A stretch of 64,000 nucleotides of DNA from assembly GCA_024234735.1 (NCBI GenBank), contig JACKNV010000009.1, positions 75,162 to 139,161 on the forward strand, given 5' to 3'. Below the pieces are notes generated by a model that worked only from the letters and a program-made list of their open reading frames with translations, did no database searches and had not been told where the DNA came from. Origin of the DNA: Pseudomonadales bacterium (GTDB lineage Bacteria > Pseudomonadota > Gammaproteobacteria > Pseudomonadales > Halieaceae). Both the position numbers and the translations under genes were made by a program. Below, one piece after another: positions 31,990 to 54,866 of the stretch (position 1 is the first letter of the stretch; each line of letters opens with the position of its first letter).

Positions 31990-32009
31990 TACTGTACATA
32001 CATACAGTT
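31990..32009 (+). promoter_or_regulatory. LexA (SOS) box upstream of imuA
   Basis: TACTGTACATACATACAGTT matches CTGT-N8-ACAG. It lies 31 nt upstream of ATG 32040. Confidence 0.85.
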
Positions 32010-32039
32010 TATTGACGGATCTACCCCGGGAGCAGGGCC

Positions 32040-32780
32040 ATGAACGAAGTACTCGAACAGATCACCAGGCGCGGCGACACCTGGCGCGGGCGGCGCACCC
32101 GTTTTCACTATCATGAACCTTCCGCCAACAGTGGGCACCACGGCCGCAGCGGCCTGGCCACGGGCTACAGCACCCTGGATGCGCAGCTGGACCAGGGGGG
32201 CTGGCCCCTGGATGGCGCCATCGAGCTGCTCAGTGACGGCAACGGGCTGGGCTCCATGGGCCTGTTCCTGCCCGCCATGGAAAAGCTCAGCGAACAGGGC
32301 CGCTGGCAGGCCTTTATCGCGCCGCCCTACATACCCTATGCCCCGCTGCTGGCGGCGCGGGGCATCGATACCCGGCAGGTTCTGCTGGTGCACCCGCAGA
32401 ACCGCCAGGACCTGTTGTGGAGCACCGAACAGGCCCTGCGCAGCAGCACCTGCAGCGCGGTGTTCAGCTGGCTGGGGGGGGGCAATTATCGCTACGGCGA
32501 ATTGCGTAAACTGCAGCTGGCCGCGGCTGGCGGCGACCGCCTGGCAGTCCTGTTCCGCCCCAACCAGGCCGCCGCCAGCCACTCCCCCGCCAGCCTGCGC
32601 CTGCAAATGCGGGAGTACCGCCGGGTACACATCATCAAACAGCGTGGCGGCAACCAGGATATAGACGTGGACCTGCCCCAGGCGGAAGACGTGCCGGGGC
32701 AGCCACAGCTATGGGAGCTGCCGACCGGGCCCGCCGCGGCATGGCAGCGGCCGGGAGAGAACCTGGCGGCGACACGCTAA
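32040..32780 (+). CDS. imuA: translesion synthesis-associated protein ImuA (SulA/RecA-fold like)
   Basis: 246 aa. GGWPLDGAIELLSDGNGLGSMGLFLPAM...VLLVHP...WSTEQALRSSTCSAVFSWL resembles ImuA/SulA2. A LexA box lies upstream, and imuB and dnaE2 follow on the same strand. Confidence 0.8.
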   Translation: MNEVLEQITRRGDTWRGRRTRFHYHEPSANSGHHGRSGLATGYSTLDAQLDQGGWPLDGAIELLSDGNGLGSMGLFLPAMEKLSEQGRWQAFIAPPYIPYAPLLAARGIDTRQVLLVHPQNRQDLLWSTEQALRSSTCSAVFSWLGGGNYRYGELRKLQLAAAGGDRLAVLFRPNQAAASHSPASLRLQMREYRRVHIIKQRGGNQDIDVDLPQAEDVPGQPQLWELPTGPAAAWQRPGENLAATR

Positions 32781-32787
32781 CGGGTCC

Positions 32788-32862
32788 GCCCGGGGCTGAC
32801 CTGCCCGGGGCTGACCTGCCCGGGGCTGACCCGCCCGGGACTATCCCGCCCGGAACGGGACA
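32788..32862. repeat. decaying tandem repeat, about 5 x 15 bp (GCCCGGGGCTGACCT)
   Basis: Two perfect units, then GCCCGGGGCTGACCC, GCCCGGGACTATCCC and GCCCGGAACGGGACA. It begins immediately after the imuA stop. Confidence 0.85.
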
Positions 32863-32919
32863 GGGCACCCCGCCCGGAGCTATACTTGGGCCCCCAACCG
32901 GAACAAGGATGTAAATGCC

Positions 32920-33357
32920 ATGCAGGATCTGCCCCATCACTACCATGTCAGCGCCAGCGCTGAAAACGAAGGTACCGTTACCCTGATCGCGGATAACCTG
33001 CCCCAGATCGTTACCGCCCCGCCGGCGGAATTTGGCGGCCCCGGCGACCAGTGGTCCCCCGAGACCCTGCTGGTAGGCGCCATTGCCGACTGTTTCATCC
33101 TGACCTTCCGGGCCATCGCCCGGGCCTCCAAGCTGGAATGGGTCAATCTGGAGTGCGCCGCGGAGGGCGTACTGGACCGGGTCGAGCGGGTTACCCGCTT
33201 TACCGAGGTGACTGTCAGGGCCACCCTCACCGTACCGGCCGATACCGATGTCGACAAGGCCACGCGGCTGCTGGAAAAGTCCGAGGAGGTCTGCCTGGTC
33301 ACCCAGTCCATGACGGCCACGACCCATCTGGAGGCACAGGTCGTCACCCAGGGCTGA
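32920..33357 (+). CDS. OsmC/Ohr family peroxiredoxin-like protein
   Basis: 145 aa. SPETLLVGAIADCFILTF and EEVCLVTQS are the two conserved Cys regions of the OsmC family. Confidence 0.85.
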   Translation: MQDLPHHYHVSASAENEGTVTLIADNLPQIVTAPPAEFGGPGDQWSPETLLVGAIADCFILTFRAIARASKLEWVNLECAAEGVLDRVERVTRFTEVTVRATLTVPADTDVDKATRLLEKSEEVCLVTQSMTATTHLEAQVVTQG

Positions 33358-33445
33358 TGAATGCGGCGCCCCGGACACCGGCCCGCGGCGCCTGCTTATC
33401 CCGCCGCCGGGCGGACGATGACAAACCGATGCAGGGCATGACGCG

Positions 33446-33658
33446 ATGGATGCTTGGCTGAGCGACTACGGGGTCACCCTCGGCGTCGGGGCACTGATCC
33501 TCTTCATGATTTTCATTGTCTGGGACCTCGCCAGGCGCAGCAACGCCGGCAAGTTCGGCACCCTGATCCTCTATATCGGCCTGGCCATGGGCATCGTCGG
33601 CTTTCTGATGAAACTGGTCATCACCTACCTGTTGGAAAGTGCCGGAGTTGGCGGCTAG
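33446..33658 (+). CDS. DUF2788 small membrane protein
   Basis: 70 aa with two TM helices. IFIVWDLARRSNAGKFGTLILY is DUF2788-like. Confidence 0.7.
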   Translation: MDAWLSDYGVTLGVGALILFMIFIVWDLARRSNAGKFGTLILYIGLAMGIVGFLMKLVITYLLESAGVGG

Positions 33659-33963
33659 TTGGCACCGGCCACCAGGCGCTGCTGCTCCTGGTACTTACGC
33701 AACTCATGGTTGTACTGCTCGGCGACCAGTTCCAGTTGGGCCAGGAAGGTACTGAACTGGCGGCTGTTCATGTAGCTGCACTCCAGATACTGCTCCCCCC
33801 GCCGCAAATACCTCTCTACCGCCTCCTGGGCCTGGTACATCTCCTCCTCGGTCGCCACCGCCGCATCCGGTATCACCGGCATCTGCCGCGGCTTGGTGAC
33901 AGGACAACCCGCCGCCACGTTCATGGCCAGGCACAGCGCAGGTACCGCAATCAAGGCTTTCAT
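33655..33963 (-). CDS. lipoprotein, unknown function
   Basis: ORF track gives 33655-33987. Start moved to MKALIAVPALCLAMNVAAGC (lipobox), preceded by GGAGGG. Its stop overlaps the DUF2788 stop (CTAG). Confidence 0.65.
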   Translation of the reverse strand: MKALIAVPALCLAMNVAAGCPVTKPRQMPVIPDAAVATEEEMYQAQEAVERYLRRGEQYLECSYMNSRQFSTFLAQLELVAEQYNHELRKYQEQQRLVAGAN

Positions 33964-34018: not shown

Positions 34019-34196
34019 ACTATCCTCCCGGAAGCCGCCAAAAACAAGCAGCACATAGGATTTTTTGTTAAAAAAACCATTATTTACCAAAGACGAGACA
34101 CAGGCAGATAGCGCACCATCATGTAACATACAGTAACATTCCGGCGCCAGTATGAGGCATGCCGCGCTGCCGGCCGGCGCTGGACAGGCCCCGCGA

Positions 34197-34236
34197 AAAT
34201 ACCCGATACTGTATATATGCACAGTATCGGGTATTT
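34197..34236 (+). promoter_or_regulatory. LexA (SOS) box embedded in a 40-bp palindrome upstream of imuB
   Basis: Core TACTGTATATATGCACAGTA is at 34207-34226. The arms AAATACCCGATACTGT / ACAGTATCGGGTATTT are perfect 16-bp reverse complements. Confidence 0.88.
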
Positions 34237-34290: not shown

Positions 34291-35718
34291 ATGAGCCTGT
34301 GGTTGTGCCTGCGCCTGCACCAGCTTCCCCTGCAATGCCTGGAGCGCCGGGAAGAGCAGGCGGTGGCGGTTATGGCGAAACAGCGCGTGCTGCGCCGCAA
34401 CGACTGTGCCGCCGCCTGCGGCATCCGCGAGGGCATGAGCACTGCCACGGTGCACGCCCTGGCCGGGGATGGCGCACTGCGCCTGCTGGAGCGGGATACG
34501 GCAGCCGAGCGGCGTTGCCTGATGCAGTTGTGCTGCTGGGCATACAGCATCACACCGCAGCTGTTCACCTGGCGGGAAGACTGCCTGCAACTGGAGATCG
34601 GCGGCTGCCTGACCCTGTTTCGCGGGTTGGAACGCCTGTTGGCGGAAGTGACCGACGGCATCGGCCGTCGCGGCTACTCTGCGGTGTATGGCCTCGCCCC
34701 CACCCCCGGAGCCGCGTGGCTGCTGTCCTTTGCGCCAACCGGGACAGCACTTGACGCGACCGCGCCCCTGGAAGAGCGCCTCGCCCCCCTGCCGCTGGCA
34801 TTGCTGGATCGCTTCGCCGACGTGGTCGACTCGCTGCGGCGGGCGGGCCTGCATACCCTGGGAGACGTGCTGGCGCTGCCGGGCAGCGCCCTGAGCCGCC
34901 GCTGCGGCAGGGACTTCACCCTGTTCCTGCAGCAGGTGCTGGGGCAGCGGGAGGAGCGGCAGGCCTGTTACCAGCCTCCGGCGAGCTTCACTGATGCCTA
35001 CTGGTTCGGCTACGAGGTAAAGGCCAACGGCGAGTTGCTGCCGGCCGTGCAACTGCTGCTGCAGTCCCTGTGCACCTTCCTGCGCAACACCCAGCTGTAT
35101 ACCAGCGAGATCCGCTGGCAATTGATCGGCCTGGACAGGACCGTGCGGGAAGTCAGCGTGCGCAGCACCAGCAGCCACAGCGACTGGCAGGCCTGGCAAC
35201 AGCTGACCGCCATACGCTTCGAGCGGCTGCAACTGGCGGGCGGGGTGGAGGGCCTGGCCCTGGAATGCCATGAGCTGAGGCCGGGGCAACAGGAAAGCGG
35301 CGACCTGTTCAACCCCGGCAGGCAGGGCGAGCCCCTGGGCAGCCTGCTGGATCGCCTGTGCAGCCGCCTCGGCCTGCAGGCCATCGAGCAGGTGAGCTGC
35401 CGGGACGAACACCTGCCGGAGCTGGCCGTACACACCTGCGCCGGCCAGGCGGGAGATAGCGCCACAGTGAACCAGCCCGACGCCCAGCGCCCCTTCTGGC
35501 TACTGCCCCGCCCCCAGGTATTGCGCCAGTCCCGCGAGCAGCTGTACTGGACGAGCGCCCTGACCCTGGTTTACGGGCCGGAGCGCATCGAGGACAACTG
35601 GTGGCAGGAGGCGGTCAGCCGGGACTACTACATCGCCAGGGATCGCCGCGGCCAGCACTACTGGGTATTTCGCGACCGCCTGGCGCGCCAGTGGTTCATC
35701 CACGGCATCTTCGCCTGA
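34291..35718 (+). CDS. imuB: Y-family polymerase-like protein ImuB
   Basis: ORF track gives 34159-35718. Start moved to MSLWLCLRLHQLPLQCL, a typical ImuB N terminus. About 475 aa. Confidence 0.85.
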   Translation: MSLWLCLRLHQLPLQCLERREEQAVAVMAKQRVLRRNDCAAACGIREGMSTATVHALAGDGALRLLERDTAAERRCLMQLCCWAYSITPQLFTWREDCLQLEIGGCLTLFRGLERLLAEVTDGIGRRGYSAVYGLAPTPGAAWLLSFAPTGTALDATAPLEERLAPLPLALLDRFADVVDSLRRAGLHTLGDVLALPGSALSRRCGRDFTLFLQQVLGQREERQACYQPPASFTDAYWFGYEVKANGELLPAVQLLLQSLCTFLRNTQLYTSEIRWQLIGLDRTVREVSVRSTSSHSDWQAWQQLTAIRFERLQLAGGVEGLALECHELRPGQQESGDLFNPGRQGEPLGSLLDRLCSRLGLQAIEQVSCRDEHLPELAVHTCAGQAGDSATVNQPDAQRPFWLLPRPQVLRQSREQLYWTSALTLVYGPERIEDNWWQEAVSRDYYIARDRRGQHYWVFRDRLARQWFIHGIFA

Positions 35719-35725: not shown

Positions 35726-36430
35726 TCAGTGAAAATAGCTGTCCCGCACCCGCTGTAGGTAGCTCACCAGGTTGTCGCGCGCCAGCCCCGCCTCCTTGAC
35801 CGGCGAGGCAACCGGCGTCAGCAGGATGTTGGCCAGCAACCCATAGGCCGCCGCGTCCACGGTGGTCGCCCTGTCCCCCATGAGGAACGGCTCGTCGCCC
35901 AGGAAATCCGCTACCGCCCCCAGGTCGCGGATGCCGATGGCGTGGATTTCGCGCTCACTGTGCACCCCGAGGCCGTGCCCCTCGATGCGCCTGCCTATGC
36001 CCCGGCGGATGGCGGGCCCCGCCAGGCGCCGCACCGGCAGGGGCATTCCGCCGAGCACGATGTCCCGGAAAAACTGCCAGTTGGCATCGACCATCCAGCG
36101 GTCATACACCATGACCCAGTAGAGGTTCTCCTCCAGCAGGCGCTGCAGCGCCAGGGCCACGGCCCGCTGCCCGGCGGACAGGCCGGCATTGCCATCGACA
36201 CCGAACTCGCCCTCGAGATAGTCGATGGCAAGGGTGGAATCGCCGATACGCCGGCCGCTGTGCTCGATATAGGGCAGCTTTTTCTTGGGGGCGCCGAACG
36301 GCACCTTGTCGATGACCGCGGTGAAGGGCAGCCCGACGATTCTCAGGTAGGTGTCCAGTTTGAGACAGAAGGGGCTGACCGAGGGCAGCCCCCAGGCACT
36401 GGGCAGGTGGTGAACGATCAGCTCCGACAC
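35726..36430 (-). CDS. glutathione S-transferase family protein (metaxin-like N-terminal domain)
   Basis: ORF track gives 35726-36580. GTG 36430 chosen as start (VSELIVHHLPSAWGLPSVSPFCLKLDTYLR). GST N- and C-domain pattern. Confidence 0.7.
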   Translation of the reverse strand: MSELIVHHLPSAWGLPSVSPFCLKLDTYLRIVGLPFTAVIDKVPFGAPKKKLPYIEHSGRRIGDSTLAIDYLEGEFGVDGNAGLSAGQRAVALALQRLLEENLYWVMVYDRWMVDANWQFFRDIVLGGMPLPVRRLAGPAIRRGIGRRIEGHGLGVHSEREIHAIGIRDLGAVADFLGDEPFLMGDRATTVDAAAYGLLANILLTPVASPVKEAGLARDNLVSYLQRVRDSYFH

Positions 36431-36870
36431 GATATCTCCTCCAGCCACTGCGGCCAGGGCGGGTGTTCCTGCGGCTGCCAGATGGACAACATGAAGCGGT
36501 CCGCCTCCTGTGGCGACCAGATTCCCCGGTCGATGGCGTAGCGCGAGTAAAAGGCACTGACCCGCCAGTTGGCGGCGCAATGAATCAACACCTTGCGCTC
36601 TCCGACGGCCTCCATCAGCTCCAGGAAGCGCTCATAGTCGGCCACGGTGGGCGCGGCGAAGTCCACCGGCAGGTACAGGTATTCGATGCCCTGGCCTGCG
36701 ACGATGTCGGCCTCTCCCGGCACCGCGTACTGGCTGGAATCGGGCATGAGGTTCAGCACCACCTCGACCCCCGCCGCCCCGAGTTGCGCCAGTTGCTCCG
36801 GCTCGACCCGCCCGGCAGTCGCGACGGTATCGCTCACCCGCCGATAGTTGTAGGCCTGCTCGACTCCCAT
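36418..36870 (-). CDS. DUF442-like protein tyrosine phosphatase family protein
   Basis: 150 aa with active-site-like LIHCAANWRVS. Confidence 0.65.
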   Translation of the reverse strand: MGVEQAYNYRRVSDTVATAGRVEPEQLAQLGAAGVEVVLNLMPDSSQYAVPGEADIVAGQGIEYLYLPVDFAAPTVADYERFLELMEAVGERKVLIHCAANWRVSAFYSRYAIDRGIWSPQEADRFMLSIWQPQEHPPWPQWLEEISCRS

Positions 36871-36904
36871 ATCCTGCTCCCTCGCCCGCTGCTATGGGCG
36901 CCTG

Positions 36905-37456
36905 TCAGTCAGTATCCCCCAGAATACCCGTGTCCCGGCCATCTAGGCTGGTGACATTTTTCTCCTGCCAGTACTGCTCGATGCCCTCGCGGCCACGCGT
37001 CTCGGCCCACTTTTGCAGGGTGGGGCGCTCCCCCAGCAACTCATAGCGCGGCACGGCATAGCCGCAAGAGGTCAGCACCAGTTCCAGTTGCAGGCGAAAC
37101 ACCTGCCGGGCGCCCACGTCCGGCGGGAACAGTGCGAGCATCGCGGCCCAGTCGCCATCGCGCGGGTGCAGGGCCGTGGCCCTGCCATACAGGCGCAGAA
37201 TCAACGGCTGCTTGCCGAACGAGCAGAACATGATGGTCATGCGCGGGTTGTCCCGCACATGGGCGGCACACTCGTTACCGCTGCCGGTGAGATTGAGCCA
37301 GGCCACCTCGGTGGGGCTGATGACCCTGAAGGTATCCATCCCCTTGGGCGATACGTTCACATGGCCCTCGGCCGCCGCCGTGCCGACAAAAAACATCTGC
37401 TGCTCGCCGATAAACTCAATGTGCCGGTCTGCCAGCGCCGCAAATCGTTCAGCCAT
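36905..37456 (-). CDS. pyridoxamine 5'-phosphate oxidase family protein
   Basis: 183 aa. FFVGTAAAEGHVNVSPKG...LNLTGSGNECAAHVRDNPRMTIMF is typical of the PNPOx-like FMN-binding split barrel. Confidence 0.8.
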   Translation of the reverse strand: MAERFAALADRHIEFIGEQQMFFVGTAAAEGHVNVSPKGMDTFRVISPTEVAWLNLTGSGNECAAHVRDNPRMTIMFCSFGKQPLILRLYGRATALHPRDGDWAAMLALFPPDVGARQVFRLQLELVLTSCGYAVPRYELLGERPTLQKWAETRGREGIEQYWQEKNVTSLDGRDTGILGDTD

Positions 37457-37682
37457 CCTCGGGCTTCTCCTGTAACAGCTCCTGCCGCTCGCGTTCGTAC
37501 TCTTGGTAAGGCTCCGAATACTGTTTCATGCATTCCTCGTACTGGGTGCCGGGTAATTTCTGGCACTCCAGCTGCCGGTTCTGCTGAATGGCATCATACA
37601 CCTGTTGGTTGCTGCAGGCTTGTAACAGCCACGCAGCCAGCAGGAGCAGCAGCCCACCGGTGCGGGCCTTCCCGCGGGACAT
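37449..37682 (-). CDS. small lipoprotein
   Basis: 77 aa with lipobox LLQAC. 8-nt overlap with the downstream gene. Confidence 0.6.
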   Translation of the reverse strand: MSRGKARTGGLLLLLAAWLLQACSNQQVYDAIQQNRQLECQKLPGTQYEECMKQYSEPYQEYERERQELLQEKPEDG

Positions 37683-37714
37683 TATTCAGCCTCCCCGGCG
37701 CTGGCGGACGCGGC

Positions 37715-37754
37715 CGTAAATGGCGCGCTCCCGGTTATCGCGGCCGCGATCACC
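37715..37754 (-). repeat. intergenic element A (homologous to element B; attC-like relic or shared regulatory site)
   Basis: The minus strand reads GGTGATCGCGGCCGCGATAACCGGGAGCGCGCCATTTACG. 22 of 27 proximal positions match element B. It ends 32 nt before the start codon at 37682. Confidence 0.5.
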
Positions 37755-37801
37755 CAGCAGGGGTCCGGTCATACTGGAGCTCGCCCCCCCGCCAGGCCCG
37801 C

Positions 37802-38290
37802 TCAGGTGGCTTCGGCATTGCTGGTGAACAGGTACTTGGCGCCCGAAAACCCCTCATACAAGCGCCGATGTGCCGCCTCTGAGAAGGTATCGTCGCGCTC
37901 GACATACTGCGATATCCACTCGAGCAGCATAGGCAAATTGGCATCCTGCTCTGCCCTGGAGGCATATTTATGCGGCTCCCAGGGCCGGACCCTCGCATTC
38001 TGGATACAGGCCTGGATCGGCAGATTGAGAAAGTAAATTTCATTCGCCTGGTGTATGGCCAACTCCAGCAAATCGGCATAGCAGCCCTCGATCACCCAGC
38101 CCGGGTTTGCGGCGATGAACTTGCCGATCTGCTGCCAGGAGGATTGCACGGTCCGCCGGGTTGGCGGCGATGTGGGCTCCCATGCCAGCGTGTCCAGGTC
38201 CAGATGAGCCAACCGGTACCGGGCACTGAGCTTCTGGGCGAGGGTCGATTTGCCCGAGCCGGAGTTGCCGAACACCAGTATGCGTTTCAA
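37802..38290 (-). CDS. P-loop NTPase (adenylate/shikimate kinase-like)
   Basis: ORF track gives 37802-38392. TTG 38290 overlaps the upstream TGA (TTGA). Walker A FGNSGSGKST. Confidence 0.7.
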   Translation of the reverse strand: MKRILVFGNSGSGKSTLAQKLSARYRLAHLDLDTLAWEPTSPPTRRTVQSSWQQIGKFIAANPGWVIEGCYADLLELAIHQANEIYFLNLPIQACIQNARVRPWEPHKYASRAEQDANLPMLLEWISQYVERDDTFSEAAHRRLYEGFSGAKYLFTSNAEAT

Positions 38291-38826: not shown

Positions 38827-38858
38827 GACCTGCCCTTGCCAATGACAGCGGATATGAG

Positions 38859-38906
38859 CATAAACGGCACCCTCCCGGTTGTCGCGCCACCGGGCTCAGT
38901 TACCGC
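38859..38906 (-). repeat. intergenic element B (homologous to element A; attC-like relic or shared regulatory site)
   Basis: The minus strand reads GGTAACTGAGCCCGGTGGCGCGACAACCGGGAGGGTGCCGTTTATG. It has an xxTAAC ... GTTTATG outline with an inner CCCGG/CCGGG stem. It ends 32 nt before the start codon at 38826. Confidence 0.5.
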
Positions 38907-38976
38907 CCGGGGCGCCGTATCTAGTGTTGCACCATCCATGCGCGCCGCCCCGGTGCGAGCGAAACCGTGCCGCCGA

Positions 38977-41754: not shown

Positions 41755-41756
41755 TG

Positions 41757-47216: not shown

Positions 47217-47255
47217 TATATTAAATGTGAACTGGCACCACTTTTGTGGACACTT

Positions 47256-48478: not shown

Positions 48479-48596
48479 GTCGCGGACCTCTTTGATAAAA
48501 CGGTTGATGACCGTCCATCAAAGTGGTGCTAGTTCACTGACCCGGCGAAGCTGCGGCAGTCCGAGGCAGCTTGCTGCCGGTGCGTGCCTAAGCTTG

Positions 48597-49058
48597 TTAT
48601 GTTGCAACTGTCTGCTCAACAATAGGTAGTAACCTAGAATCAATTACTGCAGCAGCTCGATGACCAATGCCAGCCATACATTCTGGGTCACTAGCAAAAT
48701 CAAAGAAAGTTTGAATAGAGTTTTGTTTCACCAACATGACAAAATCCCATTGTTCATCACTAGGGCCTATAAAGTAATCGCCACCCTCTCCAATAAAAAG
48801 CAAGCTACCACCAGATTGCTCTAGAAACGGCAGCGTATGATCTATATATTTTTGAAATGCTTCTTTTCCTGATATAGGTGATTCAGGCGACAATTCTGGA
48901 TTTTTGGAGTAGTCCGCTATTGCTCGAAAACGTAGTAAATTAAGCATAACGACCTCCCCAGAGATATTCCTCTGAAAAAGTTTTGTACCTGATTCTTGCG
49001 TAGGATCTAAATAATTCGATTTCATATTTTTAACTGCACTAATTTTTATAAGCAACAT
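48597..49058 (-). CDS. DUF1330 family protein
   Basis: 153 aa (alternative start ATG 49025). VVMLNLLRFR...FIGPSDEQWDFVMLVKQNSIQTFFDF is DUF1330-like. Confidence 0.7.
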   Translation of the reverse strand: MLLIKISAVKNMKSNYLDPTQESGTKLFQRNISGEVVMLNLLRFRAIADYSKNPELSPESPISGKEAFQKYIDHTLPFLEQSGGSLLFIGEGGDYFIGPSDEQWDFVMLVKQNSIQTFFDFASDPECMAGIGHRAAAVIDSRLLPIVEQTVAT

Positions 49059-49063
49059 AAAGC

Positions 49064-49114
49064 CGCCAACAAGGGCGCGCTATAAGCGCGCCCTGCTGCT
49101 TGGCCTTGTTACGC
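49064..49114 (-). repeat. attC site (about 51 bp)
   Basis: The minus strand reads GCGTAAC-AAGGCCAAGCAGCAGGGCGCGC-TTATA-GCGCGCCCTT-GTTGGCG. R'' contains the antitoxin stop codon. Confidence 0.65.
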
Positions 49115-49390
49115 GGCTGATACATTGATTTTGACGCCAAGAGAATGAAGAACTTTTTGGACTGTTTCATATCTTGGCTTTGCCCCAGGAGCAAATGCCT
49201 TATATAGGCTCTCCCGTCCCAAGCCTGACTCTTGTGCTATCGCAGACATGCCTCGTGCCTTGGCGACATGCCCAATGGCGGCAAGAAATACACTGGGGTC
49301 ATCATCCTCAAGCGCAGCGGAAAGATATTCTGCGATAGTTTCCTCACTATCGAGATATGCGCTTGGATCAAATTCTGTGACTTTAACCAT
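49109..49390 (-). CDS. addiction-module antidote protein (HTH, HigA-like antitoxin)
   Basis: 93 aa. FDPSAYLDSEETIAEYLSAALEDDDP...ARGMSAIAQESGLGRESLYKA is typical. It lies 5 nt downstream of the toxin gene. Confidence 0.85.
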   Translation of the reverse strand: MVKVTEFDPSAYLDSEETIAEYLSAALEDDDPSVFLAAIGHVAKARGMSAIAQESGLGRESLYKAFAPGAKPRYETVQKVLHSLGVKINVSAA

Positions 49391-49395
49391 ATCAG

Positions 49396-49695
49396 TTACT
49401 CCGCTCTTAATTCGGACAAAATCTGCCGAGCACGAGCTATATCCTTGCCTTGGCTCGATTTATCTCCTCCACATAGGAGAAGCACCACCAGACCAGCTTT
49501 ACGGGTGAAATAAATCCGATAGCCTGGCCCAAAATGTATTCTGAGTTCATGCAGGCCGGAACCAAGAGACTTGGAATCACCAGTATTACCTTGGCGCAGT
49601 GATTCGATTCGAGCCAGTATTCTCGCGATGGCTTTTCGGTCCCTTAGCTTTGAGAGCCATTTCGAGAAGACATCAGTCTGCTGAACTTGATACAT
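49396..49695 (-). CDS. RelE/ParE-superfamily addiction-module killer toxin
   Basis: 99 aa. FSKWLSKLRDRKAIARILARIESLRQGNTGDSKSLGSGLHELRIHFGPGYRIYF is typical. Confidence 0.85.
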   Translation of the reverse strand: MYQVQQTDVFSKWLSKLRDRKAIARILARIESLRQGNTGDSKSLGSGLHELRIHFGPGYRIYFTRKAGLVVLLLCGGDKSSQGKDIARARQILSELRAE

Positions 49696-49701
49696 TTAGC
49701 A

Positions 49702-49730
49702 AGTGTATCCTATTAGATACACTCATGCAA
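49702..49730 (-). promoter_or_regulatory. candidate TA-cassette promoter with overlapping palindromic operator
   Basis: On the minus strand TTGCAT (49730-49725), a 17-nt spacer, then TACACT (49707-49702). The palindrome AGTGTATC-CTATTA-GATACACT (49702-49723) covers the spacer and -10. The ATG lies 6 nt after the -10, implying a leaderless transcript. Confidence 0.5.
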
Positions 49731-49753
49731 TTGGTGTGATGCTTGCAGAGGCC

Positions 49754-49814
49754 GCCAAACGCTCACAGTTGGGGCGGCCGGCACGGCCGTCCCGACAATC
49801 TGTGCTTGTTAAGT
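49754..49814 (-). repeat. attC site (61 bp)
   Basis: The minus strand reads ACTTAAC-AAGCACAGATTG...CAACTGTGAGC-GTTTGGC. CAATCTGTG / CAA-CTGTG pairing leaves one extrahelical base. R'' contains the upstream stop codon. Confidence 0.75.
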
Positions 49815-50156
49815 GTGTTTGGCACGAATCCACCGTATAGAGATGTAGAACACAGAAATTGATGCGGCTACCATGCTCACGTTACCCAATAAGACTATGA
49901 AGTTGTAATAATTTGATGGGTACTCTATTAGAACTTCCGTGTCGCCTTCACTATAGGACCACCTCAGACCAGGTAGAAACCATAAACCGATTTGACAAGC
50001 CACATATACGAAAGCGAAAAAACCCAGTGCCAGACCAGAGTTCTCTTTGCTTTTTGCATACAACCAGAATCCAGATAATGAAAGAACTATAAATGCGCTC
50101 ACATAACCATAAAGATTTGAGTATACGGACAACGCAGACAGGTTCATAACGGACAC
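49809..50156 (-). CDS. hypothetical membrane protein (115 aa, 3-4 TM)
   Basis: Cassette-sized ORF bounded by attC sites on both sides. No family recognised. Confidence 0.55.
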   Translation of the reverse strand: MSVMNLSALSVYSNLYGYVSAFIVLSLSGFWLYAKSKENSGLALGFFAFVYVACQIGLWFLPGLRWSYSEGDTEVLIEYPSNYYNFIVLLGNVSMVAASISVFYISIRWIRAKHT

Positions 50157-50253
50157 TTAACGCCTGAGCTCAGGTGCGTTTGAGGCGACGCACGCTTTTG
50201 CGGTAGCAAAAGTGGGTGGCGGGTCAAACGTCACCTGCAGCGATTTGTTAGGC
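50155..50253 (-). repeat. attC site (about 99 bp)
   Basis: The minus strand runs from GCCTAAC-AAATCGCTGCAGGTGACGTTTGA to TCAAACGCACCTGAGCTCAGGC-GTTAAGT. Both cores fit the consensus and the long arms pair. My hand count differs from the ORF track by 1 nt in this area. Confidence 0.8.
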
Positions 50254-51027
50254 GCGTGTTTCACCTGAGCCGATGACCTGCTGGAGACTTCCCCACTGTT
50301 CAGCATCAATACCCTTTATAAGCATCCACAGCGCCAAAGATAGCTCAGCCACAAGAGCAGGGAGCAAAATGATCGACCCAAGGCCTGAGATTGAGTCAAT
50401 GGCGAGAATAGCGCCGAAACTGTTGGCCAGATAGCACGCACCAGCAAGGATCATTAATCGTCCAATCAGTTTAGGGAGAAAACCGCAGCGCACAATCAAT
50501 ATGCCAAGCGTTACGCAGTAAATTCCGAAAAACACGAGCGCAACATGGTAGCCAAAAGCATGAGACCGCAACGAGTGATAGGCGATCTCTTGAACCTGGC
50601 TTGAACCCAGAGCCTCTGACGTGGAAGCACCATTAAGCCAAAGCAGCGCGTCCATATGATTGAGCAAATTCGTGCCTGAGATCGCGGCCATTACTAGCCG
50701 CAAACACGCCGCGAACAATGCCAGCAAAAATCCCACGGACCTCAAGACGACGAAGAATATGACCGCCAAGGCGACATCACACACGAGCATTAGCAGTTCA
50801 GCGGACAAGCCGGCCCTATACAAATGTTGTGAACCCAGTATGTTCGCTGCTGTAGCAGAAGCATCTCCCGCAACAATAAGTTGAGAGCGCACGAAAACTT
50901 CAGAAAATAGTCCGGCAGCAATGATGAAGAGGTAGAGAGCGCCTCCGGCACGTACGTATGATGGTACGAAGTGATCAAGCTTCGGGTCAGTCAACGATTC
51001 TTTCCCCTCTGTGTTGATTGGAGCCAT
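50248..51027 (-). CDS. DUF4386 family membrane protein (first cassette)
   Basis: 259 aa, polytopic. YVRAGGALYLFIIAAGLFSEVFVRSQLIV is DUF4386-like. The start lies 13 nt from the GCCTAAC junction. Confidence 0.7.
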   Translation of the reverse strand: MAPINTEGKESLTDPKLDHFVPSYVRAGGALYLFIIAAGLFSEVFVRSQLIVAGDASATAANILGSQHLYRAGLSAELLMLVCDVALAVIFFVVLRSVGFLLALFAACLRLVMAAISGTNLLNHMDALLWLNGASTSEALGSSQVQEIAYHSLRSHAFGYHVALVFFGIYCVTLGILIVRCGFLPKLIGRLMILAGACYLANSFGAILAIDSISGLGSIILLPALVAELSLALWMLIKGIDAEQWGSLQQVIGSGETRA

Positions 51028-51040: not shown

Positions 51041-51110
51041 GCCTAACAGCTACTTCGTTGGACCAAAGCAGAAATACGAATTGTGTATTCCTGAAACACT
51101 CCACACGCCC
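51041..51110 (-). other. attI / first-cassette junction region (candidate)
   Basis: GCCTAAC at 51041-51047 equals GTTAGGC on the cassette strand, the expected composite core at the head of the array. The extent of attI to the right is a guess. Confidence 0.45.
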
Positions 51111-51299: not shown

Positions 51300-51707
51300 A
51301 TGAAAAACGGTCATCGAGTTGATAGCCTCGGGCCGGCCATGGTTTGCTTGTTGACAGCAACCCCAGAGACCGTCATTCATGGACGATGTACGAGTCCCCA
51401 TTCCCGCCGGGTCTACCCGTTTCATGGATCACCTCGCCGTTCACGCCACTGTCGCCCCGTCGACACAACGGACGGCGCTGAACGCCCTGATGTACCTGTA
51501 CACAAATTACTTCGGGCGCGATCCACAAGCGCTGAATTTCAGCTACGCCAAAACCACGCGCAGGCTGCCGACAGTACCTACGCACAAGGTTCCGACATAC
51601 ACGCCATTAAGAAACTGCTGGGGCACGACGACGTCACCACCACCGAGATTTACACCCACGTGCTCAACCGCGGGGCCATGGGTGTGATCAGCCCGGTAGA
51701 CGGTTAG
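51300..51707 (+). pseudogene. intI: integron integrase (intI) remnant
   Basis: One frame reads [34 protein letters not shown]...[10 protein letters not shown], which is the IntI N-terminal domain, and is preceded by an in-frame TGA. It then jumps to another frame reading [37 protein letters not shown], the IntI C terminus with the catalytic Tyr. About 170 central residues are absent. Confidence 0.8.
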
Positions 51708-51727
51708 CGCGAAAATTGCGCCGCTAT

Positions 51728-51763
51728 TTGACAGCCTCCAATATACTGTATATTCATACAGTA
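51728..51763 (+). promoter_or_regulatory. dnaE2 promoter candidate with overlapping LexA (SOS) box
   Basis: TTGACA (51728-51733), a 17-nt spacer, then TATTCA (51751-51756). The LexA box TACTGTATATTCATACAGTA (51744-51763) covers the -10 and ends 1 nt before ATG 51765. No Shine-Dalgarno sequence is present. Confidence 0.8.
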
Positions 51764-51764
51764 T

Positions 51765-54700
51765 ATGTCAAGCTACGCCGAACTCCACTGCCTCAGCTGC
51801 TACAGCTTCCTGCGCGGCGCCTCCCACCCCCACGAGCTGGTGGAGCGGGCGGCGCAGTTGGGCTACGCCGCCCTGGCCATCACCGACGAGTGCTCCCTGG
51901 CGGGCATCGTCAAGGCCCACGTGGCGGCCAAGGAGCACGGCCTCAAGCTGCTGGTGGGCAGCGAGTTCAACCTCGAAGAGGGTATCAGGCTGGTGGCGCT
52001 GGCGCCGTCGCGGGCGGCCTACAGCGAGCTGTCCGGGTTGATCAGCCTGGCCCGGCGGCGCAGCCCCAAGGGCGAGTACCGCGCCGCACTGCGGGACGTG
52101 ATCTTTCATCTCAAGCGCTGCCTGCTGATCTGGCTGCCGCGGGATGACGACGAGGCCGGCCGCGCCTGGGGCCGGCAGCTCGCCCGCCTGTGCGCGGGCC
52201 GGGTGTGGCTGGGCATCACGCACCTGCTGGGCAACAACGAGGTGGTGCGCTACCTCACCCTGCACCGCATGGCCGGTGAGCTGGGCATACCCCTGGTGGC
52301 CTGCGGCAACGTGCAGATGCACGAGGCGCAGCGCAAGCCCCTGCACGACGTGTTCAGCGCCCTGCGCCACAACACCAGCATCGGCCAGCTGGGGCGGCGG
52401 CGGCTGGCCAACAGCCAGCAGCACCTGCGCGCCTGCGGCAGGCTGCGGCAGCTCTACCCGCCGGCCCTGCTGGCGCAGACGCTGCACATCGCCGCGCTGT
52501 GCGATTTCAGCCTGGACGAGCTGCGCTACGAGTACCCCGAGGAGGTGGTGCCCGCCGGGCACACGGCCAACAGCTACCTGCGCCGCCTGGTGGCCGCGGG
52601 CGGCGCCCTGCGCTGGCCGCAGGGCGTGCCGGTGGATATCCAGCAGCGCATCGACGGGGAGCTGGCGCTTATCGAAGAGCTGCACTACGAGTACTACTTC
52701 CTCACCGTGTACGACATCGTGCGCTTCGCGCGCTCCCGCGCCATCCTCTGCCAGGGGCGCGGCTCGGCGGCCAACTCGGTGGTGTGCTACTGCCTGTTCA
52801 TCACCGAGGTTTCCCCCGAGCAGATCTCCCTGCTCTTCGAGCGCTTCATCTCGAAGGAGCGCGACGAGCCGCCGGATATCGACGTGGATTTCGAACACGA
52901 GCGCCGCGAGGAGGTGATCCAGTACATCTACGCCAAATACACCCGCAAGCGCGCCGCCCTGGCGGCCACCGTCATCACCTACCGCTCCCGCAGCGCGGTG
53001 CGCGACGTGGGCCGGGCCCTGGGGCTGGACCCGGTGTTCGTCGACGACCTGGCCAAATCCCTGGCCTGGTGGGATCGCACCGCGGATCTCGCCAGGCGCT
53101 TTGCGGAGCAGGGTGTGGCCCAGCACAGCCGGCAGGCGGAGCTGTTTTACACCCTGGTGCAGCAGATCCTCGGCTTTCCCCGCCACCTGTCCCAGCACGT
53201 GGGCGGCTTCGTCATCACCCGCAGCCCCATCTCCGCCCTGGTGCCGGTGGAGAACGCCAGCATGGCCGAGCGCACCGTCATCCAGTGGGACAAGGAGGAC
53301 ATCGAGGCCCTGGGCCTGCTCAAGGTGGACATCCTGGCGCTGGGCATGCTGTCGGCCATCCGCAAGAGCCTGCAGCTGGTGCAGCGCTACTGCCCCGCCA
53401 TCAAAACCGTGAGCGACGTGCCGAAGGAGGATGCGGCCACCTACCGCATGCTGCAGGCGGCCGACACCGTGGGGGTGTTCCAGATCGAGTCCCGCGCGCA
53501 GATGTCCATGCTGCCCCGCCTGAAACCCGAGAACTTCTACGACCTGGTGATCGAGATCGCCATCGTCCGCCCCGGCCCCATCCAGGGCGACATGGTGCAC
53601 CCCTACCTGCGGCGCAAGCAGGGGCTGGAGCCGGTCACCTATCCCAGCGAGGCCATCAGGTCGGTGCTGGAGCGCACCCTGGGGGTACCCATTTTCCAAG
53701 AGCAGGTGATCCGCCTGGCCATGGTGGCGGCGGGTTTTTCCGGCGGCGAGGCCGACCAGCTGCGCCGCGCCATCGCCAACTGGGGGCGCAACAGCAAGCT
53801 GCTCGGCTTCGAGCAGCAGCTCACCCGCGGCATGATGGCGCGCGGCTACGACGAGGCCTTCGCCCGCCGCCTGTTCGAGCAGATCAAGGGCTTTGCCGGC
53901 TACGGCTTCCCCGAGTCCCACTCCGCCAGTTTCGCCCTGCTGGCCTATATCTCCGCCTGGCTCAAGTGCCACCACCCGGCGGCCTTCTACACCGGCCTGC
54001 TCAACAGCCAGCCCATGGGGTTTTACAGCCCCTCGCAGCTCATCCAGGATGCTCGCCGCCACGGCGTCACCGTGCTGCCCATCGACGTCAACCACAGCGG
54101 CTGGGACCACCTGTTACTCGACGCCCGCGAGGCCGGGCTGCAACAGCCCCCCCTGCGCCTGGGCTTGCGTCTGGTAAAAGGCCTCGGCGAAGAGGCTGCG
54201 CAGCGCATCGCCCAGGCGCGCCAACGGGGGCCGTTCCGCCAGATCAGCAATCTGCGCCAGCGGGCGCAACTGGGCAAGCGCGACCTGGAGGCGCTGGCGG
54301 GCGCCGACGCCCTGGCCTCCCTGAGCGGCCACCGCCACCAGTCCCAGTGGCAGATCATGGCGCTGGAGCAGGCGCGCCCGCTGCTGCAGGATGAGCAGCG
54401 CGCCAGCGCCGGTTATTTCGACGACGGCATCCAGCTGCCCGCGCCCGCCGTGGCGGAAGAGGTACTGGCGGACTACCGCGCCACCGGCCTCACCCTGCGG
54501 GCCCACCCCATGAGCCTGCTGCGCGACCGGCCACCCTTCGACCGCTGCAAGCGCCACGCCGACCTGGCGGCGCTGGGCAACAACCGCTTCGTGCGCATCG
54601 CCGGGCTGGTTACCTGCCGCCAGCGCCCGGGCAGCGCATCGGGGGTGCTGTTTCTCACCCTGGAGGATGAAACCGGCAACAGCAATATCGTGGTGTGGCA

Positions 54701-54866
54701 GCGCACCCAGCAGCAGTTTCGCCAGGCCCTGATGAGCGGCCAGCTGTTGCTGGTCAACGGCACCGTGGAGAGCCGCGACAATGTCATCCACATCATCGCC
54801 GGGGGCCTGTACGACTACAGCCACGAGTTGCAGGCCCTGCAGATATCGTCGCGGGATTTCCGCTGA
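51765..54866 (+). CDS. dnaE2: error-prone DNA polymerase III alpha-like subunit DnaE2 (ImuC)
   Basis: 1033 aa. N-terminal PHP domain YAELHCLSCYSFLRGASHPHELVERAAQLGYAALAITDE, and a size typical of DnaE2 rather than DnaE1. Confidence 0.93.
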   Translation: MSSYAELHCLSCYSFLRGASHPHELVERAAQLGYAALAITDECSLAGIVKAHVAAKEHGLKLLVGSEFNLEEGIRLVALAPSRAAYSELSGLISLARRRSPKGEYRAALRDVIFHLKRCLLIWLPRDDDEAGRAWGRQLARLCAGRVWLGITHLLGNNEVVRYLTLHRMAGELGIPLVACGNVQMHEAQRKPLHDVFSALRHNTSIGQLGRRRLANSQQHLRACGRLRQLYPPALLAQTLHIAALCDFSLDELRYEYPEEVVPAGHTANSYLRRLVAAGGALRWPQGVPVDIQQRIDGELALIEELHYEYYFLTVYDIVRFARSRAILCQGRGSAANSVVCYCLFITEVSPEQISLLFERFISKERDEPPDIDVDFEHERREEVIQYIYAKYTRKRAALAATVITYRSRSAVRDVGRALGLDPVFVDDLAKSLAWWDRTADLARRFAEQGVAQHSRQAELFYTLVQQILGFPRHLSQHVGGFVITRSPISALVPVENASMAERTVIQWDKEDIEALGLLKVDILALGMLSAIRKSLQLVQRYCPAIKTVSDVPKEDAATYRMLQAADTVGVFQIESRAQMSMLPRLKPENFYDLVIEIAIVRPGPIQGDMVHPYLRRKQGLEPVTYPSEAIRSVLERTLGVPIFQEQVIRLAMVAAGFSGGEADQLRRAIANWGRNSKLLGFEQQLTRGMMARGYDEAFARRLFEQIKGFAGYGFPESHSASFALLAYISAWLKCHHPAAFYTGLLNSQPMGFYSPSQLIQDARRHGVTVLPIDVNHSGWDHLLLDAREAGLQQPPLRLGLRLVKGLGEEAAQRIAQARQRGPFRQISNLRQRAQLGKRDLEALAGADALASLSGHRHQSQWQIMALEQARPLLQDEQRASAGYFDDGIQLPAPAVAEEVLADYRATGLTLRAHPMSLLRDRPPFDRCKRHADLAALGNNRFVRIAGLVTCRQRPGSASGVLFLTLEDETGNSNIVVWQRTQQQFRQALMSGQLLLVNGTVESRDNVIHIIAGGLYDYSHELQALQISSRDFR

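Follow-up and report, generated by a model that had tools for sequence, protein, structure and literature searches.

A predicted ImuA-ImuB-DnaE2 SOS mutasome of Halieaceae in three boxed units, with a fossil integron in its imuB-dnaE2 gap

Layout and gene content of the locus

The 64-kb window, which is the whole stretch of DNA analysed here, very probably carries the Halieaceae (OM60/NOR5) ImuA-ImuB-DnaE2 SOS mutasome, arranged as three boxed units with an old split and with a gap that hosts a decayed integron (Table 1). The three-unit boxed layout is a known configuration and extends across the Halieaceae, and the previously unrecognised part is the dead integron in the 16-kb gap between imuB and dnaE2. 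As the original prediction held, imuA, imuB and dnaE2 lie on the plus strand in canonical order and are non-contiguous, with opposite-strand genes between them. All three genes are confirmed, spaced apart in the window. A chimeric assembly is ruled out, as imuB and dnaE2 occur together, with matching content, on one 94-kb metagenome scaffold (L003 and L088).

Profile-HMM searches, proposed earlier as a check on the three assignments, support two of them directly. The imuA product scores 204 bits against the NCBIfam ImuA model (NF033429, ImuA_translesion; cut-off 150), with a weak match to the PA3008 SulA structures, and the dnaE2 product scores 1401 bits against the NCBIfam model 'error-prone DNA polymerase' (NF004225; cut-off 939) and contains the Pfam domains PHP, DNA_pol3_alpha, finger, HHH_6 and OB. 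The imuB product matches no NCBIfam model and shows a modest match to Pfam IMS (30.6 bits; cut-off 23.2). Full-length alignments of this product give 30-43% identity to the central gene both of contiguous imuA-x-dnaE2 operons and of nearby splits that have small gaps, and the ImuB family profile matches Y-family polymerases (Pol IV) in the PDB with E = 2.5e-26. Because no curated ImuB model matched, the ImuB assignment rests on synteny, homology and the Y-family profile match. The catalytic DE of the PDB Pol IV aligns to DC in the ImuB family profile, and ImuB is apparently inactive as a polymerase. An imuB start at 34159, which gives the longest ORF, would take in LexA box 2; it was rejected and 34291 kept because the relatives align from 34291.

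The 1.5-kb spacer between imuA and imuB consists of resident genes, the most conserved of which is osmC. The three spacer genes named in the original prediction are recovered at different levels: OsmC matches Pfam and is there in most relatives, and DUF2788 and the minus-strand ORF, a lipoprotein in the original prediction, are present in the gene calls, on identical contigs. No attC match was found in this spacer at any locus.

Table 1. Features of the window (positions count from its first letter).
Feature	Position	Strand	Description
LexA (SOS) box 1	31990-32009	+	TACTGTACATACATACAGTT; ends 30 nt 5' of imuA ATG
imuA	32040-32780	+	246 aa; RecA/SulA-like accessory protein
imuA-imuB spacer	32920-33963		osmC 32920-33357 (+), DUF2788 33446-33658 (+), 102-aa ORF 33655-33963 (-)
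Promoter-like site	34181-34210	+	TGGACA-18-GATACT; consensus match only; -10 element overlaps LexA box 2
LexA (SOS) box 2	34207-34226	+	TACTGTATATATGCACAGTA; ends 64 nt 5' of imuB ATG
imuB	34291-35718	+	475 aa; Y-family polymerase homolog, conserved C-terminal domain
Native Halieaceae gene block	35726-39623	-	GST-like, PTPase-like, PNPOx-like, small ORF, AAA_18 kinase-like, GNAT, GDT1, YggU
Low-GC block	39743-44178	-	Small unrelated ORFs: GFA, Rce1-like, DUF2164, DUF3703, MAPEG, others (Pfam)
attC	44179-44270	-	Weakest of six; R1 14.4 bits, E = 0.29; R2 17.8 bits, E = 0.03; outside R2 training set
attC	45877-45933	-	ATTTAAC...GTTAGGT; R1 23.7 bits, E = 7.6e-4; R2 33.7 bits
attC	47001-47058	-	GCTAAC...GTTATGA; R1 22.7 bits; R2 39.2 bits
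IS3-family insertion sequence	47227-48537	-	orfA 48107-48478, orfB 47256-48110; Pfam HTH_Tnp_1, rve, HTH_21
attC	49055-49114	-	After toxin-antitoxin cassette; R1 21.7 bits; R2 40.8 bits
Toxin-antitoxin cassette	49109-49390, 49396-49695	-	HigA-like antidote 49109-49390, Gp49/HigB-like 49396-49695; Pfam dnstrm_HI1420, Gp49
attC	49754-49814	-	ACTTAAC...GTTTGGC; after 115-aa ORF; R1 23.4 bits; R2 40.6 bits
115-aa ORF	49809-50156		Precedes attC 49754-49814
attC	50155-50253	-	GCCTAAC...GTTAAGT; first cassette; R1 18.3 bits, E = 0.024; R2 29.6 bits, E = 1.8e-5; outside R2 training set
First cassette, DUF4386 gene	50248-51027	-	Pfam DUF4386
GTTAGGC core (GTTRRRY)	51041-51047	-	14 nt upstream of first cassette ATG; read from sequence
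intI (integron integrase) pseudogene stub	51379-51707	+	329 nt; 36 nt before dnaE2 box
TTGACA, -35-like hexamer	51728-51733	+	10 nt upstream of LexA box 3; read from sequence
LexA (SOS) box 3	51744-51763	+	TACTGTATATTCATACAGTA; 20-mer ends 1 nt 5' of dnaE2 ATG
dnaE2/imuC	51765-54866	+	1033 aa; error-prone C-family polymerase

A fossil integron in the imuB-dnaE2 gap

The 16-kb gap is made up of ~4 kb of conserved native genes and ~12 kb of a low-GC fossil chromosomal integron. It had been described as anonymous insertions and as exclusively minus-strand; in fact, its larger part is a decayed integron, whose plus-strand intI remnant lies against the dnaE2 box. The native block has normal GC (0.57-0.67) and Pfam matches, and its genes recur 3' of imuB in L066, L014 and other relatives, with PNPOx present in most loci. 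GC then falls from ~0.67 to 0.42-0.55 over 40-51.5 kb, and the genes of this part are of kinds typical for cassettes, accompanied by a toxin-antitoxin pair and an IS3.

The intI stub retains the start codon and the N-terminal SAM-like part, followed by a 144-nt deletion. A large internal deletion has taken out both the catalytic core and the patch specific to IntI, and the C-terminal part is frameshifted. The stub matches Pfam Phage_int_SAM_4 and the Phage_integrase C-terminus, and it aligns to the intact intI that L103 has at this position.

The attC sites were searched with a covariance model (A2/R1, here R1) that shows covariation and was built from other loci only, with no window sequence, and with its iterated version R2, which as a positive control finds 31 attC sites in four independent integrons, all on the cassette side. 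The best six R1 matches in the whole window, searched on both strands, all fall on the minus strand between 44.2 and 50.3 kb, and every other match has E >= 1.4. The GTTAGGC core upstream of the first cassette is likely the attI/cassette junction, as its position fits attI. At the distal end of the low-GC block, 4.5 kb (39.7-44.2 kb; GC 0.42-0.58) give no attC match with R1 or R2; this part is cassette-like, and composition and gene content alone suggest a cassette origin.

The integron in this strain is a fossil, because its intI is a stub, its attC scores are low, an IS3 element interrupts the array and every same-species contig has an identical array. With the independent model, the attC sites of the window score 14-24 bits, clearly less than the 24-64 bits of active arrays. 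The IS3 element ends in 25-nt inverted repeats (47227-47251 and 48513-48537; 88% complementary) and appears to have inserted inside the attC of cassette 48597-49058. The stub is identical in six same-species contigs. The integron is thus predicted to be no longer able to shuffle cassettes on its own.

Integrases next to dnaE2 in relatives

An intact integrase lies at the same spot in many Halieaceae. The IntI proteins adjoining dnaE2 in L097 and L103 score 408-415 bits (cut-off 265), those of L174, L175, L181 and L182 are labelled 'integron integrase' at the source, and decayed copies occupy the spot in L052, L093, L094 and L096. Minus-strand attC arrays lie 3' of imuB in L014, L031 and L045, and weaker or single attC matches occur in L052, L023, L039, L029 and L013. 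In L097, L181 and L182, a single box stands 5' of intI, and intI and dnaE2 either are 3-6 nt apart (stop to start) or overlap by 14 nt, so that at least these three have an apparent intI-dnaE2 bicistron. L174 has the same type of junction (2-nt), and its sole strict box lies ~1.4 kb upstream, past an IS. In Marinobacter genomes, intI lies 0.8-2.3 kb upstream of a contiguous imuA-imuB-dnaE2; boxes stand 5' of both intI and imuA in L177 and L178, and 5' of imuA only in L179. Our literature search found no report linking intI to dnaE2 or other mutasome genes.

These arrangements raise the possibility that selection places cassette shuffling and error-prone synthesis, two SOS-induced generators of diversity, in a common neighbourhood under LexA, in some relatives on a single intI-dnaE2 transcript; the window would be the decayed end state. 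We regard this as tentative and rather doubtful. It would fit the 11 Halieaceae lineages in which intI or its remnants adjoin dnaE2, the single box ahead of intI-dnaE2 in three of them, the Marinobacter loci and the linkage seen in 5 of 80 dnaE2-centred metagenome loci. However, the Halieaceae cases may stem from one inherited insertion, the repeated decay of the integrase at this site argues against strong selection, and the integrons of Congregibacter brevis, L176 and Alcanivorax are located elsewhere. The pattern was also seen first and searched for afterwards, which brings ascertainment bias. The integron is not universal and did not cause the split, since nine Halieaceae loci in which only a short gap parts imuB from dnaE2 are without one.

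Age of the split and predicted SOS control

The order holA-box-imuA-...-box-imuB-...-box-dnaE2 is found in ~80 Halieaceae genome loci, with ImuB identities of 50-83%. A strict box stands 5' of imuA in 64 of 66 Halieaceae loci, 5' of imuB in 71 of 79 (3 more have one mismatch) and 5' of dnaE2 in 17 of 18, where the script puts the core a median of 4 nt before the start; in the window, the 16-nt core of box 3 ends 3 nt 5' of the dnaE2 ATG. Retention of a box per fragment is not universal, because dnaE2 in L097, L181 and L182 has no box of its own and sits behind intI and one box. The split is old, at the family level or older, rather than a recent accident, and conservation of the boxes suggests that selection on them upholds it.

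It is accordingly improbable that insertions recently split a contiguous LexA-controlled operon in this lineage, with boxes rebuilt per fragment for independent tuning, as originally proposed. The gaps and boxes are real, and outside the Halieaceae clade imuA-imuB-dnaE2 normally forms a contiguous operon with one box, as the original prediction said of imu cassettes in general; the few loci with imuA and imuB adjacent behind one box (L075 and L084) make a contiguous ancestor plausible at some depth. However, the comparison with relatives, proposed earlier to see which interruptions are lineage-specific, finds the three-unit layout family-wide and also in the sister lineages L098, L100 and L101, which makes it ancient, and same-species contigs show no difference. 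Moreover, imuA, imuB and imuC at separate loci with an SOS box for each are already described in a passage of the review PMC3901139 that cites Erill 2006.

The old, boxed layout would thus provide separate DNA-damage control for each gene, as predicted, in an arrangement that is neither unusual nor lineage-specific. Because each unit has its own box, kept at orthologous positions across Halieaceae, we take the three as separately SOS-controlled; LexA binding, damage induction and separate transcripts at imuA, imuB and dnaE2 are inferred from the sequence. From established SOS biology, and with the boxes at or just 5' of the start codons, LexA dimers on the three boxes would block three promoters. 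Upon DNA damage, RecA-ssDNA filaments would promote LexA self-cleavage and parallel de-repression of the three units, and ImuB would connect both ImuA and DnaE2 with the beta-clamp so that lesions are bypassed mutagenically. Transcription of dnaE2 would start from its own boxed promoter just 3' of the intI stub. The ~12-kb part of the gap is a sedentary chromosomal integron with minus-strand cassettes that point away from intI.

Identity of the integron and of the boxes

The low GC, the IS and the toxin-antitoxin pair are found in genomic islands too, the IntI-specific patch is deleted from the stub and the distal part of the block is without attC, yet a generic island or prophage remnant acquired through an ordinary tyrosine recombinase is very unlikely: the fused stub pieces fit TIGR02249 best, with an E-value of 1.8e-25 that is ~17 orders of magnitude below the ~1e-8 for XerC/D, the stub aligns to same-locus intact integron integrases that have the IntI patch and score above the curated cut-off, six attC matches lie on the correct strand beside it, a GTTAGGC core stands where the attI junction is expected, and Pfam finds no phage genes in the gap.

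The results also bear on the boxes, whose sequences and coordinates were given exactly in the original prediction. CTGT-N8-ACAG occurs at exactly three sites on both strands of the window (31992, 34209 and 51746), with no further box, as had been claimed, and all three read as near-consensus gammaproteobacterial LexA boxes. That they are chance AT-rich sequence or sites of another regulator, with the genes not SOS-regulated, is hardly credible: the loose 16-mer pattern is only modestly unlikely (0.67 sites expected; at least three in 6 of 100 shuffles), but the 20-mer TACTGTATATATATACAGTA, with up to three mismatches, matches the same three sites alone in the window and nothing in 100 shuffles, the sites match the canonical gammaproteobacterial SOS box and are kept at orthologous positions in dozens of genomes with divergent flanks, and the imu cassette is LexA-regulated wherever studied, according to a passage of PMC3901139. 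The promoter scan calls a full promoter for neither imuA nor dnaE2, and the site at box 2 alone passes. In L175, a TTGACC similar to the TTGACA of the window precedes the dnaE2 box.

Assignment of the three mutasome genes and their LexA boxes

Profile-HMM searches bear out the assignment of imuA, imuB and dnaE2 in the original prediction. ImuA (246 aa), the RecA/SulA-like accessory protein of the cassette, passes the curated equivalog NF033429 (ImuA_translesion) with 204.3 bits against a cut-off of 150. DnaE2, or ImuC (1033 aa), the second Pol III alpha homolog, reaches 1401 bits with NF004225 ('error-prone DNA polymerase'; cut-off 939), while the replicative DnaE model gives 598 bits, under its own cut-off of 1002. 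ImuB matches Pfam IMS with 30.6 bits and none of the NCBIfam models. Active Y-family enzymes carry DxD where the N-terminus of the window ImuB reads LWLCLRF. Alignment places this protein and the middle genes of contiguous imuA-x-dnaE2 operons from metagenomes in one family, with 30-83% identity to the window protein and a conserved C-terminal block, RPxWL...GPERI...WW...RDYY. Because a single-sequence search of ImuB against the PDB gave no match, we used the profile of this family, which matches Pol IV, Dpo4, REV1 and polymerases iota and eta (best E = 2.5e-26). In the profile alignment, the catalytic 'DE' of Pol IV corresponds to 'DC' in the ImuB family, which fits the published view that ImuB is a Y-family protein without catalytic activity (PMC6511836). 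The three genes do not form a single co-transcribed operon in the window, where gaps of 1.5 kb and 16 kb with opposite-strand genes lie between them.

A search of both strands of the window for CTGT-N8-ACAG finds exactly three sites, and a search with the 20-mer consensus TACTGTATATATATACAGTA, allowing up to 3 mismatches, returns the same three sites only (2-3 mismatches each) and 0 matches in 100 dinucleotide-preserving shuffles. Both searches support the claim that each gene is preceded by a LexA-type box and that the window holds no others. A promoter-like TGGACA-18-GATACT has its -10 overlapping box 2, before imuB, and a TTGACA lies 10 nt 5' of box 3, before dnaE2. Following established SOS biology, LexA would repress the three promoters, and RecA-stimulated cleavage of LexA would de-repress all three units jointly, while the differing sequences and positions of the boxes could set differing induction thresholds. 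At box 3, the 20-mer ends 1 nt and the 16-nt core 3 nt before the dnaE2 ATG, and the spacing is similarly close at most loci of the Halieaceae, with a scripted core-to-start median of 4 nt. Since this operator-ATG spacing is too tight for a Shine-Dalgarno leader downstream of the box, the dnaE2 mRNA may, speculatively, be leaderless or have a very short leader.

About 100 nt upstream of the imuA box, the 13-nt unit CCGGTAGGGGCRA is repeated three times in tandem, covering the 3' end of holA and the DNA just beyond its stop.

Coordinates of the features in the window and in homologous loci from other genomes and metagenomes
Locus	Feature	Position	Strand
Window	13-nt tandem repeat (x3)	31850-31890	
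Window	holA stop	31856	
Window	Box 1 (CTGT-N8-ACAG)	31992	
Window	imuA	32040-32780	
Window	Box 2 (CTGT-N8-ACAG)	34209	
Window	imuB	34291-35718	
Window	Six attC sites (R1 model)	44179-50253	minus
Window	IS3 and apparently interrupted attC	48479-48596, 47200-47230	
Window	Cassette with apparently interrupted attC	48597-49058	
Window	intI stub	51379-51707	plus
Window	Box 3 (CTGT-N8-ACAG)	51746	
Window	Box 3 region	51744-51767	
Window	dnaE2 (imuC)	51765-54866	
Window	Imperfect palindrome	58714-58819	
L097	intI-dnaE2	8971-13096	
L181	intI-dnaE2	5968-10092	
L181	dnaE2 called as three ORFs	7055-10092	
L182	intI-dnaE2	5964-10096	
L174	intI-dnaE2	10001-14094	
L174	LexA box to intI	8630-10001	
L174	Perfect LexA box	8630	
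L174	IS4-like transposase gene	8672-9838	
L109	intI and mutasome	6070-13102	
L177	intI and mutasome	7969-15078	
L178	intI and mutasome	7969-15084	
L179	intI and mutasome	8001-16573	

Conservation of the split layout

Metagenome contigs that match the window proteins exactly have the same content. Since imuB and dnaE2 occur together on a single 94-kb scaffold, the layout did not arise by misassembly. Scanning genomes with ImuB yielded 80 loci, nearly all labelled Haliea, Halioglobus, Halieaceae and allies, with ImuB identities of 50-83%. The comparison shows that the split is not lineage-specific, as the same order and boxes recur nearly everywhere in these loci: leuS-lptE-holA-[box]-imuA-...-[box]-imuB-...-[box]-dnaE2. 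The imuA-imuB spacer of the relatives measures 0.06-8 kb and usually contains osmC, and the imuB-dnaE2 spacer measures 1 to >10 kb, with minus-strand genes and usually a PNPOx-like gene. In the 300 nt upstream of the gene, a strict box is present at 64/66 loci for imuA, at 71/79 for imuB (another 3 have a single mismatch) and at 17/18 for dnaE2. In L075 and L084, imuA and imuB are adjacent and carry the imuA box only, and in L097 an integrase intervenes between the box and dnaE2. Three sister lineages beyond the family (L098, L100 and L101; DnaE2 identity 68-72%) likewise carry three boxes, and their gaps measure ~1 kb. The majority of the other sampled bacteria have a contiguous operon with a single upstream box. 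The recurrence of order and boxes across Halieaceae and the sister lineages indicates that the split is ancient and maintained rather than strain-specific.

The window shares with the canonical imuABC cassette (Abella 2004; Erill 2006; PMC3901139) its three proteins, their order and orientation, and an upstream gammaproteobacterial SOS box. It differs in that the cassette is in pieces, which nevertheless stay in canonical order within one 23-kb neighbourhood instead of being scattered, in that this layout is fixed family-wide, and in that the biggest gap holds an integron. The best-studied split form is the mycobacterial one, in which imuA'-imuB and dnaE2 are separate and both parts are LexA-controlled. 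The section of PMC3901139 that summarises Erill et al. (2006) describes the cassette both as one operon and in further arrangements, among them a split with one SOS box per gene, and names an evolutionary pressure that keeps the cassette LexA-regulated. A three-way split is therefore an already described configuration, and the Halieaceae provide a family-level example of it, not a new principle. The box counts across the family are clean comparative evidence that LexA control was kept or re-established for each fragment, and this retention supports the view of such pressure as that section presents it. Of the original interpretation, the reading of three LexA-boxed units stands, given the conserved boxes, but the rarity and recency ascribed to the arrangement do not, given the family-wide split and its place in the literature, and the identity of the large gap was missed.

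A decayed integron in the gap between imuB and dnaE2

The GC content falls from ~0.67 to 0.42-0.55 between ~40 and 51.5 kb. This low-GC region carries small minus-strand ORFs of 84-279 aa with unrelated functions by Pfam (GFA, Rce1-like, DUF2164, DUF3703, MAPEG, ABM, two glyoxalases and DUF4386), a toxin-antitoxin pair of the Gp49/HigA type, and an IS3 with 25-nt inverted repeats at its ends. The 4 kb that directly follow imuB (GST-like to YggU) are close to normal in GC, and the same genes are found downstream of imuB in relatives such as the homologous locus L066; on these two grounds we consider this part native.

The DNA directly before the dnaE2 box encodes the C-terminus of a tyrosine recombinase. 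The two remaining recombinase pieces of this stub match Pfam Phage_int_SAM_4 and the C-terminus of Phage_integrase, and when the pieces are fused, the best model is TIGR02249, with 90 bits and E = 1.8e-25 (full-length cut-off, 265), compared to ~1e-8 for XerC/D. The stub and the intact intI of L103 have the 5' region and start codon in common; a 144-nt deletion follows in the stub, and a further large internal deletion has taken the catalytic core and the IntI-specific patch. The TIGR02249 match, the loss of core and patch, and the intact positional homologs in L097 and L103 indicate that the window integrase is IntI-derived yet non-functional. A candidate attI junction is a GTTAGGC core 14 nt ahead of the ATG of the first cassette, where such a junction would be expected.

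We searched for attC sites with a covariance model from other loci (R1), trained on L097 and L109 sites only. Its structure was set by hand from single-sequence folds, with the canonical R/L-box pairing fixed, because the RNAalifold consensus was not useful, and was then checked by covariation: 82% of cells pair, compared to 30-46% with a slid partner, and compensatory changes occur in 7/7 L-box pairs. With filters off and both strands of the entire window searched, the top six matches of R1 all lie on the minus strand of the low-GC region, with E = 8e-4 to 0.29 and low scores of 14-24 bits, and the next-best matches (E >= 1.4) are scattered. The iterated model R2 finds the same six attC sites in the window and no further attC in 39.7-44.2 kb. 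As a positive control, it was applied to four independent integrons of the Halieaceae type, where its 31 sites all fall on the cassette side. A strict regex for attC cores has no match in the window. Two home-made gapped palindrome scanners show ~2-fold enrichment within the gap, which is non-discriminating in 67%-GC DNA, and a gapless inverted-repeat finder is blind to attC because of the extrahelical bases.

The top match of the palindrome scanners is unrelated, a strong 106-nt imperfect palindrome at 58.7 kb (arms of ~25 nt, ACCTGGGAGGTATTT...) between two convergent genes, one for argininosuccinate synthase and one for a PCMT-type methyltransferase. It may serve as a terminator in both directions or be a REP-like element; Rfam models match nothing within the window, this palindrome included. 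As a separate observation, the IS3 has apparently inserted in the attC of one cassette, where an attC-like 5' half (TAACAAGCTTAGGC...) continues directly into the IS3 inverted repeat.

On the sequence, the distal part of the gap is best described as a sedentary chromosomal integron whose integrase is dead. All same-species contigs carry an identical array, which together with the gutted intI suggests that cassette recombination is currently absent, and the integron is predicted to be inert in this strain. Two further readings were rejected. The imuA-imuB gap is not a second cassette array, since the attC model matches there in no locus. The integron is also not the cause of the imuB/dnaE2 split, because integron-free Halieaceae and the sister lineages share both the split and the dnaE2 box; the integron is absent from nine Halieaceae loci with a short imuB-dnaE2 gap, a set that is short-gap by construction.

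The window system is a split imuABC locus plus a decayed chromosomal integron, both of known kinds. Decayed chromosomal integrons are known with intI pseudogenes and as CALIN-type attC clusters (Cury 2016). The array resembles those of chromosomal integrons in its small promoterless-looking ORFs separated by attC, its toxin-antitoxin cassettes and its IS insertion, and differs from the typical case in the gutted intI, the fixed content and the weak attC. As in sedentary chromosomal integrons whose intI is under SOS control (Guerin 2009; Cambray 2011, PMC3108266), the window has an IntI-type recombinase, here a remnant, divergent from a co-oriented array; unlike in them, its integrase end adjoins an SOS polymerase gene. 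Stubs and weak attC arrays of this type are easily overlooked in annotation and taken for anonymous insertions.

Integrons beside mutasome genes in Halieaceae and Marinobacter

We examined the same site in relatives, in metagenome loci centred on dnaE2 and in loci found with full-length IntI as the query. In many Halieaceae lineages, intI or its remains immediately precede dnaE2 and share its strand. The gene is intact in L097 and L103 (408-415 bits; TIGR02249 cut-off, 265; IntI patch in both) and decayed by an internal deletion in L096 and by a frameshift in L094. In L093 and L052, N- or C-terminal stubs remain, with attC nearby; short IntI-stub queries missed these two remnants, which full-length IntI found. 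Minus-strand attC arrays lie 4-11 kb downstream of imuB in L014, L031 and L045, and weaker or single attC matches occur in L052, L023, L039, L029 and L013. From an IntI search of a large protein database, six Halieaceae-type contexts were sampled. Four of them adjoin dnaE2 (L174, L175, L181 and L182), three of which are the genomes of L048, L028 and L062, with imuB-intI distances of roughly 44, 32 and 29 kb; the other two integrons, in L173 (Congregibacter brevis) and L176, lie elsewhere.

The arrangement of boxes at this site varies. L175 and L096 have one box before intI and another before dnaE2, and L103 and the window have a box before dnaE2 only. In L097, L181 and L182, the only box is the one upstream of an intact intI, with none between the genes, and dnaE2 begins 3-6 nt past the intI stop or overlaps intI by 14 nt, so that intI and dnaE2 look like an SOS-controlled bicistron. 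In L174, where intI is also intact, the intI-dnaE2 junction is 2 nt, and an IS lies between intI and the nearest strict box, ~1.4 kb upstream. A LexA box just upstream of intI is a feature that the Halieaceae relatives share with many described chromosomal integrons; an intI that apparently shares box and transcript with dnaE2, as in some of these relatives, sets them apart.

A second family shows a related layout. The distant metagenome locus L109 (DnaE2 53% identical) reads box-intI-box-imuA-imuB-dnaE2, with a textbook attC array, and its IntI shares 89% identity with an integron integrase from Marinobacter. In the Marinobacter genomes L177 and L178, intI lies 0.8 kb upstream of a contiguous, co-oriented imuA-imuB-dnaE2, with boxes before intI and imuA, and in L179 (M. 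nauticus) it lies 2.3 kb upstream, with the sole strict box before imuA. An integron of Alcanivorax is located elsewhere. As in Halieaceae, an IntI-family integrase lies immediately upstream of and co-oriented with the mutasome genes in the Marinobacter-type loci, and the array is on the far side. Unlike in Halieaceae, the mutasome is contiguous, intI stands ahead of imuA instead of dnaE2, with one to three unrelated genes in between, and the integrases are ~52% identical to the Halieaceae ones.

Two SOS-induced generators of novelty, the integron integrase and the ImuABC translesion machinery, are therefore neighbours in at least two marine gammaproteobacterial families, and in some Halieaceae the integrase and the translesion polymerase look like one transcription unit. 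This recurrent intI-mutasome linkage, including the apparent bicistrons, is what remains of interest once the known kinds of system are set aside. The physical linkage is present here and appears to be unreported: a full-text literature search for integrons with mutasome genes or with Halieaceae or Marinobacter found no paper on it among those covered, which does not by itself prove novelty, and reviews discuss the SOS regulation of integrons apart from that of imuABC. We propose, as a conjecture that we hold to be rather unlikely, that the linkage is a selected, functional SOS 'evolvability island' in marine gammaproteobacteria. Through the putative LexA-controlled intI-dnaE2 bicistron of Halieaceae and the intI upstream of imuA-imuB-dnaE2 in Marinobacter, DNA damage would induce both cassette shuffling and error-prone synthesis from a single locus, and the window would represent a fossil stage in which intI is dead and dnaE2 has its own box. 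If the coupling is real and selected, cassette recombination would be tied to mutagenic repair in both mechanism and regulation, and cultured, tractable organisms for testing it would be at hand in Mangrovimicrobium sediminis (L175), the Halieaceae isolate GM1-29 (L182) and Marinobacter spp.

Two of the Halieaceae-type loci show further features. On the Halioglobus chromosome of L174, the IS is represented by an IS4-like transposase gene between a perfect LexA box and intI, and the start of intI is immediately preceded by a half box (TACTGTAT); possibly the operator or promoter of intI was split by the IS. In L181, a long-read MAG, dnaE2 is called as three consecutive ORFs (PHP, alpha-finger and HHH-OB), which probably reflects frameshift sequencing errors and not a true pseudogene.
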